Shown piece after piece: positions 8,145 to 23,034 of a stretch of DNA of 62,349 bases (positions are counted from its first letter, which is position 1; each line of letters starts with the position of its first letter). A program made the translations under genes and the position numbers. Origin of the DNA: a virus (lineage: Duplodnaviria; Caudoviricetes); IMG/VR virus record IMGVR_UViG_3300028388_005459, positions 1-62,349 of that record. The stretch is one strand, 5' to 3'. The notes under the pieces are model-generated. The model was not told where the DNA came from, did not search any database, and worked only from the letters and a program-made list of their open reading frames with translations.

Positions 8145-8332
8145 TTTGTCTCCCTCCGTCTTTTCTTGATTTGGACAGCTTTAACCAAATTCTCTGTCCA
8201 TGGGTCTTTATAAAAAAAAGAGCCTAAACGTCGATAAGAGCCCTCGCATTTTTTGAGGGTAAAATTGGCAGCGTCAAGTTCGCTCTTAACATCTTTCATT
8301 TGCGGGAAGTTCCCCGCCAAATAAATTTTCAT
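8141..8332 (-). CDS. small DpdA-associated protein (MKIYLAG...RRLGSFFY)
   Basis: Translationally coupled to the dpdA-like gene. Confidence 0.6.
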   Translation of the reverse strand: MKIYLAGNFPQMKDVKSELDAANFTLKKCEGSYRRLGSFFYKDPWTENLVKAVQIKKRRRETK

Positions 8333-9336
8333 ATGCCAAGCCCGCGCGTAGCACCTTCAAATCTGGCATCTTTGTAGGCGGGGAGTATTTTTTCAAAATC
8401 GATATAATACCAAATATTGAGCTCGTCTCGTCGCTTGTAATTGTTCCCCGCCCCCATTTCTTCAATTGTTTCGATAAACCTTTCTCCGGGCCGATTTGGG
8501 TCTTTTATCTTGACAAGGCGTTCATTTGCCTGGCGCTTATAGTCTGCGCTTTCCCATCGAAAAGATGATTTTCCAAATTGATATTCCTTACCCTTTTCTG
8601 CGAGATACGCATCCACAATTTCTCGCGTCGATTCGGGCAAATTTCGATAATGATCAGGATCTTTCTTTTTGTTTGGAGCGAAGAACGATTCCGCCGACAA
8701 GGTAATTTTTAGGGGCTCTTGCGTATAATCCCAGCTTCCATCTTTTGTTCGGGGGACATAAATCTGTCCATGCCGCCCGACAGTCACCCAAGATGCTGAG
8801 TCAACAGAATACCAGGGGTATCGCATCATGAGGCGGAATGAAGTGACTGCGAATCCATGAAACTTGACGATAGGCCGCCCATTTCTGTCGGTGACCCAAG
8901 ACATGCAGTTGTCGAGCCATGATCTCTTTTCCGCTGTCGTCTTGTCATTCGCGGGAGAAAGCCCGATATACTCGAACAAGTCAAGCATTTTTTCAAGCCA
9001 CTTAAAATTTTCGCCTTGATGGAATACGGGAATTAACTGATTTTTAGGAATCCCTGCGTCGACCATGCGCATAAGATTCTTCCATCCCTGTTTTGCCGCA
9101 GCTTCTATTATTTGTGGAGTCTCGGGATTGTATGGATGGGGTGAAACGCCTCGACTCTGACTTGTCGATCCACGATTTGTCGCTGCGCTTGGGATTACGT
9201 CGAGATTGACGAAATAATCCACAACATCGAGTCGATCAAGGCAGTATGAAATGTAATCGTCAAGCAAGATTTCGGCGCCAATATTCCAAGCAGAAAATGC
9301 CCCCGAATCCATAATCAATTCGATCTCTCTTGCCAC
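8329..9336 (-). CDS. dpdA: DpdA-like DNA 7-deazaguanine transglycosylase (TGT-fold)
   Basis: DSGAFS, LDVIP, PVFHQGE, HGFAVT and PWYSVDSASW motifs; adjacent to que genes; GTG start after AGGAG. Confidence 0.85.
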   Translation of the reverse strand: MAREIELIMDSGAFSAWNIGAEILLDDYISYCLDRLDVVDYFVNLDVIPSAATNRGSTSQSRGVSPHPYNPETPQIIEAAAKQGWKNLMRMVDAGIPKNQLIPVFHQGENFKWLEKMLDLFEYIGLSPANDKTTAEKRSWLDNCMSWVTDRNGRPIVKFHGFAVTSFRLMMRYPWYSVDSASWVTVGRHGQIYVPRTKDGSWDYTQEPLKITLSAESFFAPNKKKDPDHYRNLPESTREIVDAYLAEKGKEYQFGKSSFRWESADYKRQANERLVKIKDPNRPGERFIETIEEMGAGNNYKRRDELNIWYYIDFEKILPAYKDARFEGATRGLGI

Positions 9337-9370
9337 GATTTCTCCTTTCTTTGGGCTTGACTTTTTCTGC

Positions 9371-9400
9371 ATTATAGCCAAGCCCAAAGAAAGCGCAAAA
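9371..9400 (-). promoter_or_regulatory. promoter of dpdA (TTGCGC...TGGC-TATAAT)
   Basis: Consensus -10 with the conserved TGGC extension. Confidence 0.65.
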
Positions 9401-9402
9401 AA

Positions 9403-9846
9403 TTATTCTGCCGCAACCGGATTTTTTGTATGCTCAGCCACAACAGTGATGAAAGTCCCGCCGCGGGCGTTGAATTTTCCTTCAACCTTCATCCATCGAG
9501 GAAGAGAGACATAAACCAAATCGCCCAAGATTTTGTTAACGATTTTTTCCATGAAGGCACCGTGCTGTCGATACGCGAAAAAATAAAGTTTAAGACTTTT
9601 GGATTCGATGCAATGTCGAAAAGGAATATACGTGATCTTGATTTCCCCAAAATCGGGTTGCCCGGTTTTCGGGCAAAGTGAAGTGAATTCGGGAAACGCG
9701 ATTTCAACAGTATATTTCGCATTCGGGCCCTCATGATGGTGGGGGCTGGGAAACACTTCGAGCATGTCGGGAGATGGCAAGGTGAGTTGATATTCTGTCT
9801 TCTCCGCGCCAAGTTTCGTCAATCCAGAAACGTTATTTTCAGACAT
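9403..9846 (-). CDS. queF: preQ0 reductase QueF (type I)
   Basis: EFTSLCPKTGQPDF with catalytic Cys; QueF motif ESKSLKLY; RGG. Confidence 0.92.
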   Translation of the reverse strand: MSENNVSGLTKLGAEKTEYQLTLPSPDMLEVFPSPHHHEGPNAKYTVEIAFPEFTSLCPKTGQPDFGEIKITYIPFRHCIESKSLKLYFFAYRQHGAFMEKIVNKILGDLVYVSLPRWMKVEGKFNARGGTFITVVAEHTKNPVAAE

Positions 9847-9874
9847 ATTTCCTCCTGAAGGTTTGCGCCCGTTC

Positions 9875-10441
9875 TTATTGCCGCCGACCAATCAGGCTGA
9901 GAAACTCGTTTCTTGCCGTCGGGTCGGTCATAAACTCGCCCTGTAGGGACGACGTTACCATGATTGAATTCTGTTTTGACACTCCCCGCATTCGCATGCA
10001 AAGGTGCTGAGCCTCGACAACGCATGCCGCCCCTCGCGGCCCGAGATAGTCCATAAGCGTATCTGTCACTTGAGTTGTAAGCCTCTCCTGAATCTGCAAG
10101 CGACGGGAAAAAGCGTCGACAATGCGCGCGAGCTTTGAAGTCCCAAGGATTCTGCCATTTGGGATATACGCGACATGCGCGACACCAAAAAATGGGAGCA
10201 TGTGGTGTTCACAAGTCGAAAATACTTCAATGTCGCGCACAAGGACGAGTTCGTCATACCCGGAACTGTCGAACGTCTTCATGAGGCCAGAGATTGAGAC
10301 GCGATACCCAGAAAAGATTTCATCGCACCACGCGCGACGCATGCGCTCTGGCGTCCCTTTTAGCCCTTCCCGATCAGGATCTTCGCCAATCGATTCGATC
10401 AACGAGCGGACCCCCGCGTCAAAACGTCTCTCGTCCATCAT
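9875..10441 (-). CDS. folE: GTP cyclohydrolase I
   Basis: [33 protein letters not shown]. Confidence 0.97.
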
Positions 10442-11133
10442 AATCGCATTGTCCTTTCCATTAAGGGGTCAGCATACCCCGCCTCCAAAAACCCGTTCAT
10501 GCGCAGCTTACAAGCGGGACATTCGAGGCATGGAGGCACGACGCCATTATAGCAAGTGTGCGAATGAGCAAGCGCTTCCCATGCCGGGTATCCTTGCGCG
10601 TCGAGTTCTTTGGCAAGCTGGACAGTCTCTGCCTTTGTCATATACATAAGGGGGGTGTGAATCGTGATTTCTTTGGCGAGAGCGAGAGACAAGGCGACCT
10701 GAGTGGCTTTGATGGTGTTGTCTCTGCAATCTGGGTATCCGGAAAAATCGGTCTGACATACGCCAGTGACGATGTTTGAGATATCGTGCTTATAAGCGTA
10801 TGCTGCGGCGAAGGTTAAAAGAGCGACATTGCGGCCAGGAAGAAACGAGGCGGGCAGGCTACCGACGCGATGCGCCGAAGAAATGTCACCGTCCCGTTGC
10901 ACCATTAACGAGTCTCCAATTTGGCTGAAAATCGTTCCCGCGTCGAGTTCCACGTGATACGCTTTCGCAAGCGCGGCGATAGTTTCTGCCGCCTCCATCT
11001 CCACGACATGCCGTTGGCCGTAATGCAGATTCAAGGAAACGATAGGCCCCTCAAATTCGCGTTTCGCCCAGAACAAACATGTCGTGGAGTCCTGTCCTCC
11101 AGATAGGAGGACGAGAGCTCCACTTCGCTTCAT
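10438..11133 (-). CDS. queC: 7-cyano-7-deazaguanine synthase
   Basis: SGGQDST, PGRN, YPDCR, C-terminal TCY...CxxCxxC. Confidence 0.97.
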
Positions 11134-11146
11134 GATCTGCTCCTTT

Positions 11147-11962
11147 TTAGAAGGTGATTTTGCCGTCGGAGGTTTTATGCGCGACTTTGCCAAATTTCGA
11201 GTATTTCGGGTTGAGAGAATCAGAAACGACGGTGCCAACGGTGGAGGGCGTTTCTTCCGGAAACTTCTCAATCACTTTCGCGACGAGATCCTTCCGGGTA
11301 TGCTCTCCCTCTTCGATCAGCGCCTTGATATAGTCGTTTCGATCAGACTTTCGGGCGCGACGAGTGCCGATATTTTCGCCCTTGCTCTTGCTCTTGCCTT
11401 TGCCTTTGCCGGCGCCCTTGCTCTTGCTCTTGCCCCTGCCGGCGCTGTCGTCTTCGCCCGAGGAGGCGTTCGTCGTCGATTCGACTTCGACTTTGACGCC
11501 CAAGACCTTGCGCAGGCTCGAAGGGACCTTCTTGCCCATTTGCGCAGCGACTTCCTTCAAAGCTGTTTGCGCGTCCTCGCTCAGGGTCTCCAAATCGTCT
11601 TCCGCCATGAATTTCTGGATGAAAGTGTCGAGATGGGACTTGATCTGCGCTTCCGCTTGTTTTTGATCCTCGAGTTTCCGGCTCTCGGGCTCGACGGTCA
11701 GGTTGGGTTCGATTTTGAAGGCCTTTGAAAGCTCGTCGGCGACCTTGTTCAAGCGCTTAACATTGTCCATAACGGCCTTCAGAGACGGCTTGCTTGCCTT
11801 CGCGCTGTTGTTGCTGCCATTCTCGGCCGGAGCGCTGTTTTTCGTCTTGTTTTTGGCGGTGTTGGTGGTTTGGCTCTTGCCCTTGCTCTGACTCTTGGTG
11901 CTGTTGTTGGTGGTTTGGCTCTTGCTCTTGCCTTTGTTCGTGTTGGTGGTTTGCTTCGCCAT
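11147..11962 (-). CDS. Lys/Ser-rich, histone-like DNA-binding protein
   Basis: KSKS/GKGK repeats, globular C-terminus, AAGGAGG RBS, its own promoter. Confidence 0.65.
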   Translation of the reverse strand: MAKQTTNTNKGKSKSQTTNNSTKSQSKGKSQTTNTAKNKTKNSAPAENGSNNSAKASKPSLKAVMDNVKRLNKVADELSKAFKIEPNLTVEPESRKLEDQKQAEAQIKSHLDTFIQKFMAEDDLETLSEDAQTALKEVAAQMGKKVPSSLRKVLGVKVEVESTTNASSGEDDSAGRGKSKSKGAGKGKGKSKSKGENIGTRRARKSDRNDYIKALIEEGEHTRKDLVAKVIEKFPEETPSTVGTVVSDSLNPKYSKFGKVAHKTSDGKITF

Positions 11963-12007
11963 TTTGTTTTCCTCCTTGTGTTGTGTGCGTTTTCGATCTT
12001 GGAAAAC

Positions 12008-12036
12008 ATTATAGCCAGATTTGGAGAATTTTGCAA
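12008..12036 (-). promoter_or_regulatory. strong sigma70-type promoter TTGCAA-17-TATAAT
   Basis: Near-consensus hexamers with 17-nt spacer ending in TGGC. Confidence 0.8.
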
Positions 12037-12053
12037 GGGCTTTTTGGAAAAAA

Positions 12054-12800
12054 TTATGGAAAATTTATTCTCTTGTGAATTTGGACATTTAGAACCACGT
12101 CCGCAAGCCTCGAGCTTGCCCGCATCCAAGAAAACAGCTTTTGAGGCCCCAAATGGATGGGTGAAAACGCGAATCGTGGAAAAGAGCGCTGCCCAAGCTC
12201 GTTTTTGATGAGATCAAGCGCCTCGACAGCGCTATAAAAAGATTCCTGATCCCAGACCGGAATCTTGACCCAGTCCCCCTTCTCTCCATCAAGAATGTCC
12301 CATGTCGATTGAGCCCAGGGCAATGGAGCGTCTGTTTTATAGTCCACAATCAAGGACAAATTTTCCGCGCGCTCTTTGAGAACCTCCTTCAGCGTGGCGT
12401 TAAGCTCAACAGTGCCATTTGTTTCGATTGAAATATGGAACGGCGAGGACCTTTCGTCCTTGATTTGCTCTTGACTGTCGAGAGTGCGGTAAGTGACGCG
12501 AAGCGGGAGCTTTTCCAAAAGATCAAAAAGGCCCTCTTGTTGCATGAAGGGCTCTCCCCCCGTAATTGTCGCCTTTACGGTTCGCAGTTCAGCGACGACA
12601 TTATAAACGGAGGTGACGTAGCGCGACAGAGAATCCCGATTTTTGGCGTAGGGAGAATCGCAGTAAAAGCAATCGAGATTGCACCCGAAGAACCGGATAA
12701 ATGTCGATTGAGTTCCTTGCCCTTGGGGATTGACTTCTCCGTCAATCGAAACGAAAGGGGGTTCAGCGAGCACTAATGCGCCACAAGTTTCTGCTTCCAT
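12054..12800 (-). CDS. queE: 7-carboxy-7-deazaguanine synthase (radical SAM)
   Basis: SIDGE, IRFFGCNLDCFYCDS, TGGEP, IETNG, QIHK. Confidence 0.93.
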   Translation of the reverse strand: MEAETCGALVLAEPPFVSIDGEVNPQGQGTQSTFIRFFGCNLDCFYCDSPYAKNRDSLSRYVTSVYNVVAELRTVKATITGGEPFMQQEGLFDLLEKLPLRVTYRTLDSQEQIKDERSSPFHISIETNGTVELNATLKEVLKERAENLSLIVDYKTDAPLPWAQSTWDILDGEKGDWVKIPVWDQESFYSAVEALDLIKNELGQRSFPRFAFSPIHLGPQKLFSWMRASSRLADVVLNVQIHKRINFP

Positions 12801-12801
12801 A

Positions 12802-13203
12802 TTAGTTCTCCTTGATCCACTCTGCATAGCTTGTTGGTGTTTCGTAGAGTCGAACACCAAGAAGCCTTGCACTTGTAAAAGACAACACGGGAATCAGTTC
12901 GTCCCGAATCCACAGCACCATCCGCTCAGCAGTCGGCGAGACAACGTCGAAGGGCGGAATCGAGTTTATCAACTGATGATCGAGTTTGGTTTTGATCGCG
13001 TCTTCCATGATCTGTTTTAGATGCCCAAAATCCACAAGCATTCCAGTTGACGGATCAATTCGACCGCGCATGGCGATTTGAAGCCGGTAAGTATGTCCAT
13101 GAAGGTTGCTGCACTTGCCCTCGTGTTTTGGCAGATAATGCGCAGCGTCGAAAGTGATTTCCTTTACGACTACCACAATATCTCTATCAATCGGCGGACT
13201 CAT
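12802..13203 (-). CDS. queD: 6-carboxytetrahydropterin synthase
   Basis: FDAAH, CSNLHGHTY, DFG, LDH, PTAE, LYETP. Confidence 0.96.
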   Translation of the reverse strand: MSPPIDRDIVVVVKEITFDAAHYLPKHEGKCSNLHGHTYRLQIAMRGRIDPSTGMLVDFGHLKQIMEDAIKTKLDHQLINSIPPFDVVSPTAERMVLWIRDELIPVLSFTSARLLGVRLYETPTSYAEWIKEN

Positions 13204-20760: not shown

Positions 20761-20941
20761 TTTGTTCCTCTCTTTCTTCGTCTTGCTGCAAGTGCTGCCT
20801 CCATTCCTTGCAGCCACGACATTCGTCTTCCTTCTCGCATCGAGTAAAACAGACAAGCACCTTGACTCGACGCTTGAGGCGAGAGCAAGCGAGATAAACA
20901 TTAGGGATGATTTCGCTCGTCGCTGTTCTTCGTCGGATCAT
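20723..20941 (-). CDS. small Cys-rich protein
   Basis: ATGA overlap with the upstream gene; CxxC motifs. Confidence 0.5.
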   Translation of the reverse strand: MIRRRTATSEIIPNVYLACSRLKRRVKVLVCFTRCEKEDECRGCKEWRQHLQQDEEREEQNGATISRHNAAD

Positions 20942-21381
20942 GAGAACACCACCTTTAGCTCTCGAAACGCGCGCCAGATCGCTTCCCATTTCCACCCCAA
21001 GCGATGCAAATGATGGCCGAGTTTCGTTTTCGTTAGCTCGAAGTCATATGGAAGCGACAATGTTAGCAGCGCGATTTCTCGCGCCTCGTTGCTAAGTTGG
21101 TCGAAAAGGTCGACGAGACGAGTATTGGGATCCTCGCTCGACCATTCGAAGTCGACAGAGAGTGTGTGAGTATGCGCGCGCCAGACATGGTGTTGAAAGT
21201 AGAAAAACAGCCAAGTTTGAAATTTCGCGCCCTTGCTCTCTTTGAATGTCGCTTTCGCCTCGAAAAATGCGAGTTTAGCGCAAGAGAGCGCCTCCTCAAA
21301 CTCGACACCTTTCAAGGCGGCGGTTCGTTTCGCCTCGCGATGAATCAGCCCTCTATAATCCTCATAGTTGATCTCCTTCAT
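20938..21381 (-). CDS. sigma-factor-like protein (region 2)
   Basis: YRGLIHREAKR...EEALS...F(K)ESKGAKFQTW resembles sigma70 region 2. Confidence 0.6.
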   Translation of the reverse strand: MKEINYEDYRGLIHREAKRTAALKGVEFEEALSCAKLAFFEAKATFKESKGAKFQTWLFFYFQHHVWRAHTHTLSVDFEWSSEDPNTRLVDLFDQLSNEAREIALLTLSLPYDFELTKTKLGHHLHRLGWKWEAIWRAFRELKVVFS

Positions 21382-21560
21382 ACGTAAGCTCCTTGTTCGT
21401 GGAGGTTTTGACGTTTTGCGGCAAGCGCCTCGTCTCTGATGATTTGGTGGCGACCTTCGCATATGCAGTAAGGACAGAATATGGCGCCCGAGACGACAAA
21501 GGAATGTCGCGGGTCAATCGCGCGCCCGCATTCTGAGCATATCCAAATGCGTTTCTCCAT
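21378..21560 (-). CDS. small zinc-finger protein
   Basis: CSECG...CPYC; AAGGA RBS. Confidence 0.65.
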   Translation of the reverse strand: MEKRIWICSECGRAIDPRHSFVVSGAIFCPYCICEGRHQIIRDEALAAKRQNLHEQGAYV

Positions 21561-21605: not shown

Positions 21606-21899
21606 TTATCCGTTGTTGCGGCGCTCGATTTCGTCGTGCAAATCTTGCGGCTCGATCTCGGGCCAATCTTCCTGAGCTACCATTCTGATGGGGTTCTCGT
21701 CAGAGTCGACCTCCCAAATTTCCATGTTTGCCCAAGAAATGTCGATTTCGCCGTGACTATCAACGTGGAGCTCAGCGTCCACGACCGCAGAGAATAAGTG
21801 TGGGCAGACATTTCCTGTCCACAAAATTTCGCGGGTTCCATCGTTACGGCGAGAATTGCCGCTTCGTTCAAAAGCTTGATAGCGTTTGTTTTCGCTCAT
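21606..21899 (-). CDS. acidic early hypothetical protein
   Basis: AAGGAG RBS; flanked by hairpins. Confidence 0.7.
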   Translation of the reverse strand: MSENKRYQAFERSGNSRRNDGTREILWTGNVCPHLFSAVVDAELHVDSHGEIDISWANMEIWEVDSDENPIRMVAQEDWPEIEPQDLHDEIERRNNG

Positions 21900-21951
21900 G
21901 TCAGTCTCTCCTTTCAGAGTGTCGGGGCGGATTCAACCGCCCCGATTAGTG

Positions 21952-22203
21952 TTATTCGTCGTCCTCGTCGTCGCCTTCAGCCGGCAACACGGTAACGATG
22001 TGGTGTGGCTCGTTGTCGGCGTCCGTAAACGCTTCGACGCAGTCACCGCCACCGTCGCCTTGATCGACGACGACATAGCCGGCTTCGCGCGCCTTTTGCT
22101 TCGCGTTTTCGATTCCAACCACGGGTTCGAGCTCCTCGATTTTGGTCATGTAGTCTTCTCCAACCTCGAGAACGTGTACGGAATAGGCTTTTTGATCGGT
22201 CAT
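21952..22203 (-). CDS. highly acidic early protein
   Basis: GGGAG RBS; first gene after the ribozyme. Confidence 0.7.
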   Translation of the reverse strand: MTDQKAYSVHVLEVGEDYMTKIEELEPVVGIENAKQKAREAGYVVVDQGDGGGDCVEAFTDADNEPHHIVTVLPAEGDDEDDE

Positions 22204-22236
22204 TGTTCTTCTCCCTTCTTTTGTGTGGGTTTTGTT

Positions 22237-22298
22237 TGGTCTGTCTCGTCAGTAACGGGCGACCATCTCCGTTAGACCGCAGTGTCTGCGGTTTCGAC
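22237..22298 (-). ncRNA. type II hammerhead ribozyme with pseudoknot
   Basis: GUC-GAAA-[CCGCAG aca CUGCGG]-UC^[UAACGG loop CCGUUA]-CUGACGA-GAC. Loop I UGGUC is complementary to the 3' tail GACCA. Cleavage predicted between 22275 and 22274. Confidence 0.9.
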
Positions 22299-22489
22299 TC
22301 TCATTTCCGCCTTTCGCCTGCTTGGAGGTAGATTATCTCTCATCTACGTGCCCGGCGCGATGGTCCGGGGCTTCTCGCCAGCTCGATCTACGGGCGGGGG
22401 AGGCTTTTGTCGAGAGCGCCTTGCCTTCTCTCTTGCCGGCTCCGGGAAGGTGATTTTATCGCTACCCTCTGACTCCCGTTCCGACCTGG

Positions 22490-22502
22490 TTTTGAAAGAG
22501 CG
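22490..22502 (-). promoter_or_regulatory. boxA-like antitermination element (CGCTCTTTCAAAA)
   Basis: Resembles lambdoid/rrn boxA; about 20 nt after the predicted start of transcription. Confidence 0.55.
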
Positions 22503-22527
22503 TCGATTCGTCGTGAATCTGGTTAAT

Positions 22528-22556
22528 ACTATAACGCCGCTTTCAAGTATTGTCAA
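22528..22556 (-). promoter_or_regulatory. major early promoter TTGACA-17-TATAGT
   Basis: Perfect -35, 5/6 match at -10, 17-nt spacer. Confidence 0.85.
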
Positions 22557-22645
22557 GCGTTTTCAAGCGCTGAACCAAAAAAAATTTTTCCGCTTAAAAT
22601 GCCTTGATTGCTACGAAAATTGGAATCTGGTAAAAATCTGGCAAA

Positions 22646-22673
22646 AAAAATTTCAAAATTTTTTGAAATTTTT
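22646..22673. repeat. 13-bp AT-rich inverted repeat at the strand divergence point
   Basis: AAAAATTTCAAAA-TT-TTTTGAAATTTTT. Confidence 0.75.
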
Positions 22674-22782
22674 CCGATATACTCGCATCCAATACGATGG
22701 CGTAGGCTCGACGATGGCAGAGAGCCAAAGGAGTTTAACCATGTAGTTCTTTAAACCCCGAAGCGATGGAAGAGAACGAAAG

Positions 22783-23034
22783 ATGGTGTTTGAAGTCGAC
22801 AGCGCGTGGCAGAGACTAAGCGAAAACGATAAGGTCTTGATCGAAAGATGGATGAATAGCTCTGTCAAGATAAAAGCCGCTTGCCCCTGGCACAATGTCA
22901 GAGACCGCATTGATTGCGAATCCCTTCCTTGTCGCGAATTGTTCCCCGAAATGATGGAAACAGACTATCGCTGCCCGTGCAATGCGCTTGGCATCGATTC
23001 TGTTATGGGGAGAGTGAGGGAGAAACTGCAATGA
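22783..23034 (+). CDS. Cys-rich hypothetical protein (paralogue of 55662-56009)
   Basis: CPWH...CRELFP...CPCNALG. Confidence 0.7.
   Translation: MVFEVDSAWQRLSENDKVLIERWMNSSVKIKAACPWHNVRDRIDCESLPCRELFPEMMETDYRCPCNALGIDSVMGRVREKLQ

Follow-up and report, generated by a model that had tools for sequence, protein, structure and literature searches.

The closest described systems are the type II hammerhead ribozymes of Rfam family RF02276, as presented by Perreault et al. 2011 (PMC3088659). The element described in this article shares their topology, catalytic core, pseudoknot, short stem II, and association with phage DNA. It differs from the Rfam consensus, which has a 2-bp stem II and an AGCC tail, by a stem II of 3 bp and the tail AGACC. 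According to PMC3088659, such a pseudoknot is needed for fast cleavage at 0.5 mM Mg2+. Dataset S1 of that article, which lists all its hammerheads, may already include members of the subtype to which the element belongs. The role of hammerheads in bacterial and phage DNA is described as unresolved in PMC6765202, in keeping with what an earlier, sequence-only reading of this DNA had stated, and a search of the full-text literature found no systematic study of the role of phage hammerheads newer than the articles cited here.

In the haloviruses HF1 and HF2, the hammerhead HHphage precedes, by 13 nt, the gene that opens an early polycistronic transcript, and the mapped mRNA 5′ end lies at most 3 nt from the cleavage site (PMC3088659). 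HHphage resembles the ribozyme of the window—meaning the whole 62,349-nt stretch of DNA that was analyzed—in that a hammerhead is found just before the first ORF of a unit with replication functions. However, as described in that article, HF1 and HF2 are archaeal viruses, and HHphage has an atypical core with insertions and only the said 13 nt to the start codon, whereas the window ribozyme combines a canonical core with 31 to 34 nt to the start codon and a long conserved leader.

Tandem hammerheads of the same class flank variable genes in the prophages of A. tumefaciens (ardA), C. scindens, and A. caulinodans, and processing of long phage transcripts was proposed as their role (PMC3088659). 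In the arrangement reported there, two to three ribozymes are situated between co-directional genes, as also in 7 of the 20 subtype loci scanned here, whereas the window contains one that is near a promoter and has no upstream ORF. In Desulfovibrio vulgaris, in vivo cleavage is described for three type II hammerheads that lie close to phage-like genes, and both products were captured (PMC8782182). The 3′ fragment within the motif has 39 nt in that bacterium and would have 40 nt in the window (22274–22235). The hammerheads of D. vulgaris are chromosomal, and the part of PMC8782182 that is drawn on here describes no link to a promoter or leader.

With respect to the mode of action, the synthetic ribozyme insulator RiboJ can be compared, which in E. 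coli raises protein 2- to 10-fold and transcript ~2-fold (PMC6206723). Like the window element, it is a ribozyme of hammerhead type that lies behind a promoter and ahead of a ribosome-binding site, and it removes variable upstream RNA (PMC6206723). RiboJ is engineered and carries an added hairpin. The likeness is one of action and not of membership. It was derived from a plant satellite-RNA ribozyme. A further difference is that the predicted accessibility of the Shine–Dalgarno sequence in the window is unaffected by cleavage. A distant analogy is provided by the 5′-UTR hammerheads of some RNA viruses, which are reported in PMC13725137 as being required for translation.

Genomic context

The window is a phage contig, and its IMG/VR record is estimated to be 86% complete. 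Its large terminase (TerL) is at most 41% identical to the TerL of cultured phages, mostly phages of Proteobacteria, and blastn of 21900–22800 against cultured phage records gives no match. The substantial ORFs of 1–22203 are all encoded on the minus strand and those from ~22780 onward on the plus strand, with a turning point of the cumulative GC skew at 20 to 22 kb. The leftward arm of 22 kb is co-directional, and the ribozyme is located on its coding strand ahead of the first ORF; promoter, leader, ribozyme, Shine–Dalgarno sequence, and ATG follow one another on this strand. Going leftward from the ribozyme, the arm encodes in order an 83-aa acidic ORFan, a 97-aa protein, and a 60-aa zinc-ribbon protein, next a weakly sigma-factor–like protein, a DUF6011 protein, a DUF932 protein, an SNF2 helicase, and a primase, and farther along a replication initiator, a DnaB-like helicase, a 7-deazaguanine set, a sliding clamp, a DNA polymerase, and a clamp loader. 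The rightward arm contains a methyltransferase, the large terminase, and the portal. The placement in an early leader that had been read from the letters is borne out as a position ahead of the replication-gene arm; the early timing is presumed.

Two further observations concern the leftward arm. The 174-aa protein encoded at 20938–21462 (minus strand) has weak similarity to sigma-70 region 2 (PHROG 351, E of 3.9e-08; below the cut-off in Pfam) and could act as the phage's own sigma factor on the late genes of the rightward arm, for which the scan shows no sigma-70–like promoter. The stretch 8329–12872 (minus strand) contains a tRNA-guanine-transglycosylase–like gene, two GTP cyclohydrolase matches, and QueC-like and QueE-like genes (queuosine-type). 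This 7-deazaguanine gene set suggests that the phage modifies its own DNA.

Architecture of the ribozyme

The minus strand from 22299 to 22235 matches Rfam Hammerhead_II (RF02276) over the full model (1–66) with 52.3 bits and an E of 6.8e-08, as determined by cmscan of the whole window on both strands against 4227 Rfam families. It is the sole Rfam match in the window over the gathering score, which for RF02276 is 37 bits, and its E is 1.2e-09 when the 1.1-kb local region is scanned alone. A permissive scan (E ≤ 5) reveals no second ribozyme of any class in the 62-kb window. The check with Infernal and hammerhead models that the sequence-only reading had proposed thereby confirms the motif, and the span of 22237–22298 given in that reading falls 1 to 2 nt inside the Rfam match.

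All elements of the structure can be read from the minus strand. The open stem II consists of 3 bp between GUC (22298–22296) and GAC (22245–22243), including the pair G10.1–C11.1. It is followed by the core strand GAAA (22295–22292) and by stem III, in which ACCGCAG (22292–22286) pairs with CUGCGGU (22282–22276) and is closed by the loop ACA; herein A15.1–U16.1 is joined by 6 bp. The predicted cleavage site lies behind C17, between C22275 and U22274. Stem I is formed by UAACGG (22274–22269) and CCGUUA (22258–22253) with 6 bp and leads into the core strand CUGACGA (22252–22246). In addition, UGGUC of loop I (22265–22261) and GACCA of the 3′ tail (22241–22237) form a pseudoknot of 5 bp.

The catalytic core is present, with CUGANGA as CUGACGA, with GAAA, and with GUC as the NUH triplet (H at position 17). 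The core-adjacent pairs G22245–C22296, A22292–U22276, and U22274–A22253 (G10.1–C11.1, A15.1–U16.1, and N1.1–N2.1) are all formed; candidates with mispairs at these positions were discarded in PMC3088659. According to the structure line of the Rfam alignment, the permutation is that of type II, stems I and III being capped by loops and the transcript entering and leaving via the open stem II. Most, though not all, type II members have a pseudoknot in which loop I forms at least 4 bp with the tail that follows stem II; here it comprises the 5 bp mentioned previously. The initial description from the letters, i.e., a type II hammerhead with full core, 6-bp stems I and III, a 3-bp open stem II, and the pseudoknot UGGUC/GACCA, agrees with both the sequence and RF02276. 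Minimum free energy (MFE) folding of the 65-mer does not recover the hammerhead fold (z of −1.47), which is not counted against the motif because it is a pseudoknotted three-way junction. Judged by all computable features that define RF02276, the window element is a genuine type II hammerhead, the cleavage itself being predicted.

Promoter and leader

A sigma-70–like promoter is located on the minus strand at 22528–22556. It consists of TTGACA (22556–22551), a 17-nt spacer, and TATAGT (22533–22528), which gives 11 of 12 consensus matches. No other promoter-like site is found on the minus strand of 21800–23000, where shuffled sequences average 0.4, and the −35 and −10 hexamers are unchanged in the close relative L002. 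The distance from the promoter to the ribozyme is 228 nt. Judging from the promoter position, transcription would start near 22521, and the predicted released RNA (22521–22275) has ~247 nt, close to the upstream RNA of ~245 nt that had been proposed before.

The leader extends from the predicted start to the ribozyme (22300–22521, minus strand). Indels of the relative at 22304, 22519, and 22643 disrupt every ORF that overlaps it on either strand, and the leader is therefore non-coding. The ORFs rejected in this way comprise one of 70 aa on the minus strand, one of 154 aa on the plus strand, and one of 23 codons (22343–22272, minus strand) whose UAA directly follows the cleavage site and whose frame is lost to the 1-nt deletion of the relative at 22304. 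That this UAA starts at the first nucleotide past the cleavage site is probably a coincidence.

The stretch 22289–22488 is 98 to 99% identical to the relative contig, compared with ~90% overall, and is the best-conserved stretch of the 5.3-kb comparison between the two; for at most three differences in 200 nt at 10% divergence, the binomial P is 1.5e-06. Parts of 22310–22520 are also covered, with three to five differences per ~200 nt, by short contigs that come from three studies and four DNA runs; no RNA run turned up for 21800–23000. An RNA function, DNA-level signals, or a recent exchange could each be the cause of this conservation. By blastn against all fetched loci, the leader matches nothing but the contig of the close relative. 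No Rfam family matches it at E ≤ 1, and the folding energy of leader plus ribozyme is ordinary compared with shuffles (z of −0.10). Two metagenome matches to the leader-plus-ribozyme pattern (L095 and L096) show no homology on alignment and were discarded as chance matches.

Around the promoter, in 22540–22575 (minus strand), the motif CTTGA(A/C)A occurs three times at intervals of ~10 nt, one copy being the −35 hexamer, and long A and T runs are present upstream of them (22575–22700). These motifs and runs may represent an operator, an UP-element, or origin-like DNA of a divergent control region.

The 5′ UTR and the variable gene slot

Cleavage would leave a 5′ UTR of 71 nt (22204–22274, minus strand) that starts with a 5′-OH and the stem I hairpin from nucleotide 1, continues with an A/C-rich spacer, and contains the Shine–Dalgarno sequence AAGGGAG (22217–22211) ahead of the ATG at 22203. 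This ATG lies 31 nt from the Rfam match and 34 nt from AGACC, which fits the ~35 nt between ribozyme and first early ORF that had been estimated earlier. The predicted accessibility of the Shine–Dalgarno sequence is equal in the full-length and the cleaved RNA (0.563 versus 0.564), and an unmasking of the ribosome-binding site by cleavage is thereby not supported.

ORF1 (21952–22203, minus strand), the first ORF of the leftward arm, encodes 83 aa of no known family and is very acidic, with 23 D + E versus 5 K + R. No PHROG or Pfam family is assigned to it, a search of viral contigs gives no match, and the 381 matches to its pattern in metagenome contigs include no relative. In a search of 5.8 billion protein clusters, only three proteins were found, the relatives of ORF1 numbering two. 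The AlphaFold2 model of ORF1 (mean pLDDT of 68.1) has no Foldseek match in the PDB at E ≤ 0.001. Its acidity and its position as first gene resemble those of DNA-mimic anti-restriction proteins, which is meant as an analogy only.

The gene slot behind the ribozyme is variable, since the relative carries a 915-nt insertion between ORF1 and ORF2 (L003, 1968–2883) and since ORF1 is missing from one metagenome contig, in which the spacer behind the ribozyme is fused to the ribosome-binding site of ORF2. The ribosome-binding region of ORF1 in L002 is similar to that of ORF2 in the window, and recombination could occur between them. Between ORF1 and ORF2, a 10-bp GC-rich hairpin (21921–21946) resembles a terminator solely when read on the plus (antisense) strand. 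In minus-strand sense, where it lacks a U run, it could form a stable 3′ end of the ORF1 message.

Close and distant relatives

One close viral contig of 8205 nt (loci L002, L003, L034, and L051) is ~90% identical to the window over 7.3 kb. The identity is uneven: 66 to 80% in ORF1, 84 to 93% in most genes, and 98 to 99% in 22289–22488, from where it stays at 94 to 96% out to 22988. The relative retains the ribozyme with 53.3 bits. Within the 65 nt of the motif, three changes are found, two in loop III (22283 and 22284) and one at the free core position N7 (22248), and no stem is changed. With the motif kept in a ~90%-identical relative and all three changes falling outside the constrained positions, the window ribozyme is, by this comparison, under selection.

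In the DNA fetched for 30 distant TerL relatives (32–47% aa identity; 17 plus 11 loci and 2 whole records), no hammerhead is found over the cut-off; three more of these 30 are additionally covered as whole records, and four of the five whole records are at least 96% complete. Likewise, none of the four records sharing the DUF6011 protein contains a hammerhead. The absence from both groups of relatives shows that the ribozyme is lineage-specific. A sub-threshold hammerhead match of 24.4 bits in the TerL relative G010 was rejected, as it is not seen at E ≤ 0.1 in the family-wide scan of L039.

Conservation and position of the subtype

The pattern used to collect the subtype consists of the core and the 3′ tail, with the stems and loop I outside the pattern. 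It is present in 42 viral contigs, which together with the window represent 28 distinct ribozymes (27 further ones). In the alignment of the 28 sequences, which were chosen by this core-plus-tail pattern and are to be read with that caveat as to covariation, 96.8% of the pair cells are paired, compared with 74.6% for shuffles and 29 to 43% for slid partners, and the covariation score is 0.575, compared with 0.143 for shuffles and at most 0.09 for slid partners. Both sides are changed in 12 of 21 pairs and, counting only stems I and III, in 11 of 13. The pseudoknot cells are paired to 97.9%, and the loop I side reads TGGTC in 21, TGGTT in four, and CGGTC in three of the 28. The Rfam scan covered all but five of the distinct ribozymes, and the cut-off is passed by 18 of the 23 scanned (15 of 20 pattern sites plus the window, L002, and L063); those below the cut-off are L040, L050, L053, L057, and L070.

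A Shine–Dalgarno sequence and a start codon follow within 40 nt downstream in 18/28 ribozymes, compared with 9.9% of random positions in the same loci. An upstream ORF on the same strand ends −6 to +17 nt from the ribozyme in 20/28, compared with 5.6% of random positions. These counts follow a crude rule (upstream ORF of at least 60 aa; downstream ORF of at least 35 codons with a Shine–Dalgarno–like 4-mer), and three ribozymes were scored on a duplicate locus that offers a longer flank. Members of the subtype usually follow a stop codon and precede the next ribosome-binding site, a position that points to mRNA processing just before the ribosome-binding site. Genes of many kinds, most without a known function, follow the ribozymes. 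Two to four hammerheads are carried by 7 of the 20 subtype loci scanned, and 13 contigs of prokaryote genomes, assigned by their labels to many phyla, contain the same pattern. L045 and L061 each contain four type II hammerheads within ~2.4 kb, and in L047, two hammerheads are accompanied by a FuFi-1 RNA (144 bits) ~450 nt away on the opposite strand.

The window ribozyme is typical of the subtype, but its layout, with a single ribozyme, a promoter close by, and a leader instead of an upstream ORF, is a minority within it. The same layout is found in L063/L081 (L063 3380–4490), with a promoter of 12/12 matches, an ORF-poor leader of ~415 nt, and a hammerhead of 53.2 bits, which is followed after 16 nt by a Cro-like HTH gene. 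Opposite these, L063 carries cI-like repressor (HTH) and ImmA-like genes, these names being taken from the translations and not from a family search. L063 is a temperate-type phage that is unrelated to the window.

Proposed mechanism and alternative explanations

We consider it the probable case, at a rough probability of 0.6, that the 5′ leader of the leftward unit contains in this element a functional type II hammerhead, which would cleave during transcription and thereby insulate and define the 5′ end of the mRNA. Host RNA polymerase would initiate at the sigma-70–like promoter near 22521, and the 65-nt motif would fold once transcribed, aided by the pseudoknot between loop I and the 3′ tail. 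Constitutive self-cleavage between C22275 and U22274 would then detach the ~247-nt non-coding leader, with its 3′ end formed by the stem III hairpin and a 2′,3′-cyclic phosphate, and would leave the coding RNA with a defined 5′ UTR of 71 nt that carries a 5′-OH and has the stem I hairpin at nucleotide 1. The nature of both ends is taken from established hammerhead chemistry (PMC8782182). The published natural and synthetic hammerheads described at the outset (PMC3088659, PMC8782182, PMC6206723) make this scheme plausible.

The likely benefit would be that the downstream genes are uncoupled from the upstream RNA, as by a natural ribozyme insulator, and that the mRNA receives a fixed, protected 5′ end, so that the setting for translation initiation would stay constant. 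Such a role fits a site at which the directly downstream gene is swapped between related phages. With Shine–Dalgarno accessibility being unchanged, any benefit would need another source, either the nature of the 5′ end or differing fates of the two products. In this scheme, we infer the use of the promoter, the early timing, cleavage in vivo, and an effect on stability or translation. A 5′-OH end promotes decay in some bacteria, an example being the product of the glmS ribozyme; whether cleavage would stabilize or destabilize the message may therefore depend on the host. The conservation of the leader that would be discarded is not accounted for by insulation, and the minority layout of the window also counts against this reading.

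This conservation would be explained if the ribozyme mainly served the upstream product and the leader were itself a functional phage non-coding RNA, whose 3′ end the hammerhead would form as a hairpin with a 2′,3′-cyclic phosphate and without a terminator. For such an RNA speak the 98 to 99% identity of the leader next to ~90% overall and 66 to 80% in the neighboring ORF1 (P of 1.5e-06), its non-coding nature on both strands (indels at 22304 and 22519), and its recurrence in short contigs of four DNA runs from three studies, which cover 22310–22520 with three to five differences per ~200 nt. Moreover, the released RNA would start with a hairpin at +2 (GAUUC/GAAUC) and finish in stem III, and the unrelated L063 likewise has a promoter, a leader of ~415 nt, a hammerhead, and then the first gene. 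However, the leader matches no Rfam family at E ≤ 1 and folds no better than shuffles (z of −0.10), among all fetched loci its homologues are confined to one close relative, most subtype members have no leader at all, and the identity, which is still 94 to 96% out to 22988, could reflect DNA-level control signals or a recent module exchange. A functional leader RNA is hence considered unlikely. Even less is to be expected of a regulated switch, in which the leader would sense a signal and govern the folding of the hammerhead, the 5′-OH end leading to decay and the early genes being turned down. The long conserved leader does directly adjoin the ribozyme, and MFE and centroid folds pair 22504–22492 with 22309–22296, by which the 5′ strand of stem II would be sequestered; PMC3088659 raises regulated hammerheads as a possibility. 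But this long-range helix is weakened in the relative by both the G>A change at 22504 (RNA sense) and the deletion at 22304, the two variants recur in metagenome contigs, and the whole fold is no better than shuffles. In most subtype members, the two flanking ORFs lie so close to the ribozyme that a sensor would not fit, which suggests constitutive cleavage.

Improbable to much the same degree is that the hammerhead is an intact but neutral passenger on a horizontally acquired module and has little current function. Its sporadic occurrence (0/30 distant TerL relatives and 0/4 DUF6011 records) and the spread of the subtype over unrelated viral contigs and 13 prokaryote genome contigs of many phyla would be expected of a passenger, but all three substitutions between window and relative avoid the constrained positions, and the stereotyped spacing to the ribosome-binding site together with the subtype's covariation speak for activity being under selection. 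That the motif resembles the hammerhead consensus by mere accident, in favor of which there is only the general fact that short motifs can arise by chance, is hardly conceivable next to a window-wide E of 6.8e-08 against all families, a match to the full model, the pseudoknot, and a relative that keeps the motif.

Implications

The kind of ribozyme is known, and its position at the head of an early operon is uncommon but has published precedent. New are the clean case of a single ribozyme, the evidence on the arrangement across the subtype, and the highly conserved leader. With one ribozyme, a strong promoter, a defined leader, and a variable downstream slot, the locus represents a simple test case for the role of phage hammerheads. 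If the leader were a functional RNA, one promoter would supply two products, a stable regulatory RNA and an early mRNA stabilized on its own, and a natural hammerhead would have a concrete job in giving an sRNA its 3′ end where no terminator is present. With respect to the preferred role in defining and insulating mRNA, the arrangement of stop codon, hammerhead, and ribosome-binding site across the subtype supports a more general function, namely, the separation of cistrons, and the subtype offers natural parts by which genes may be insulated in synthetic constructs.
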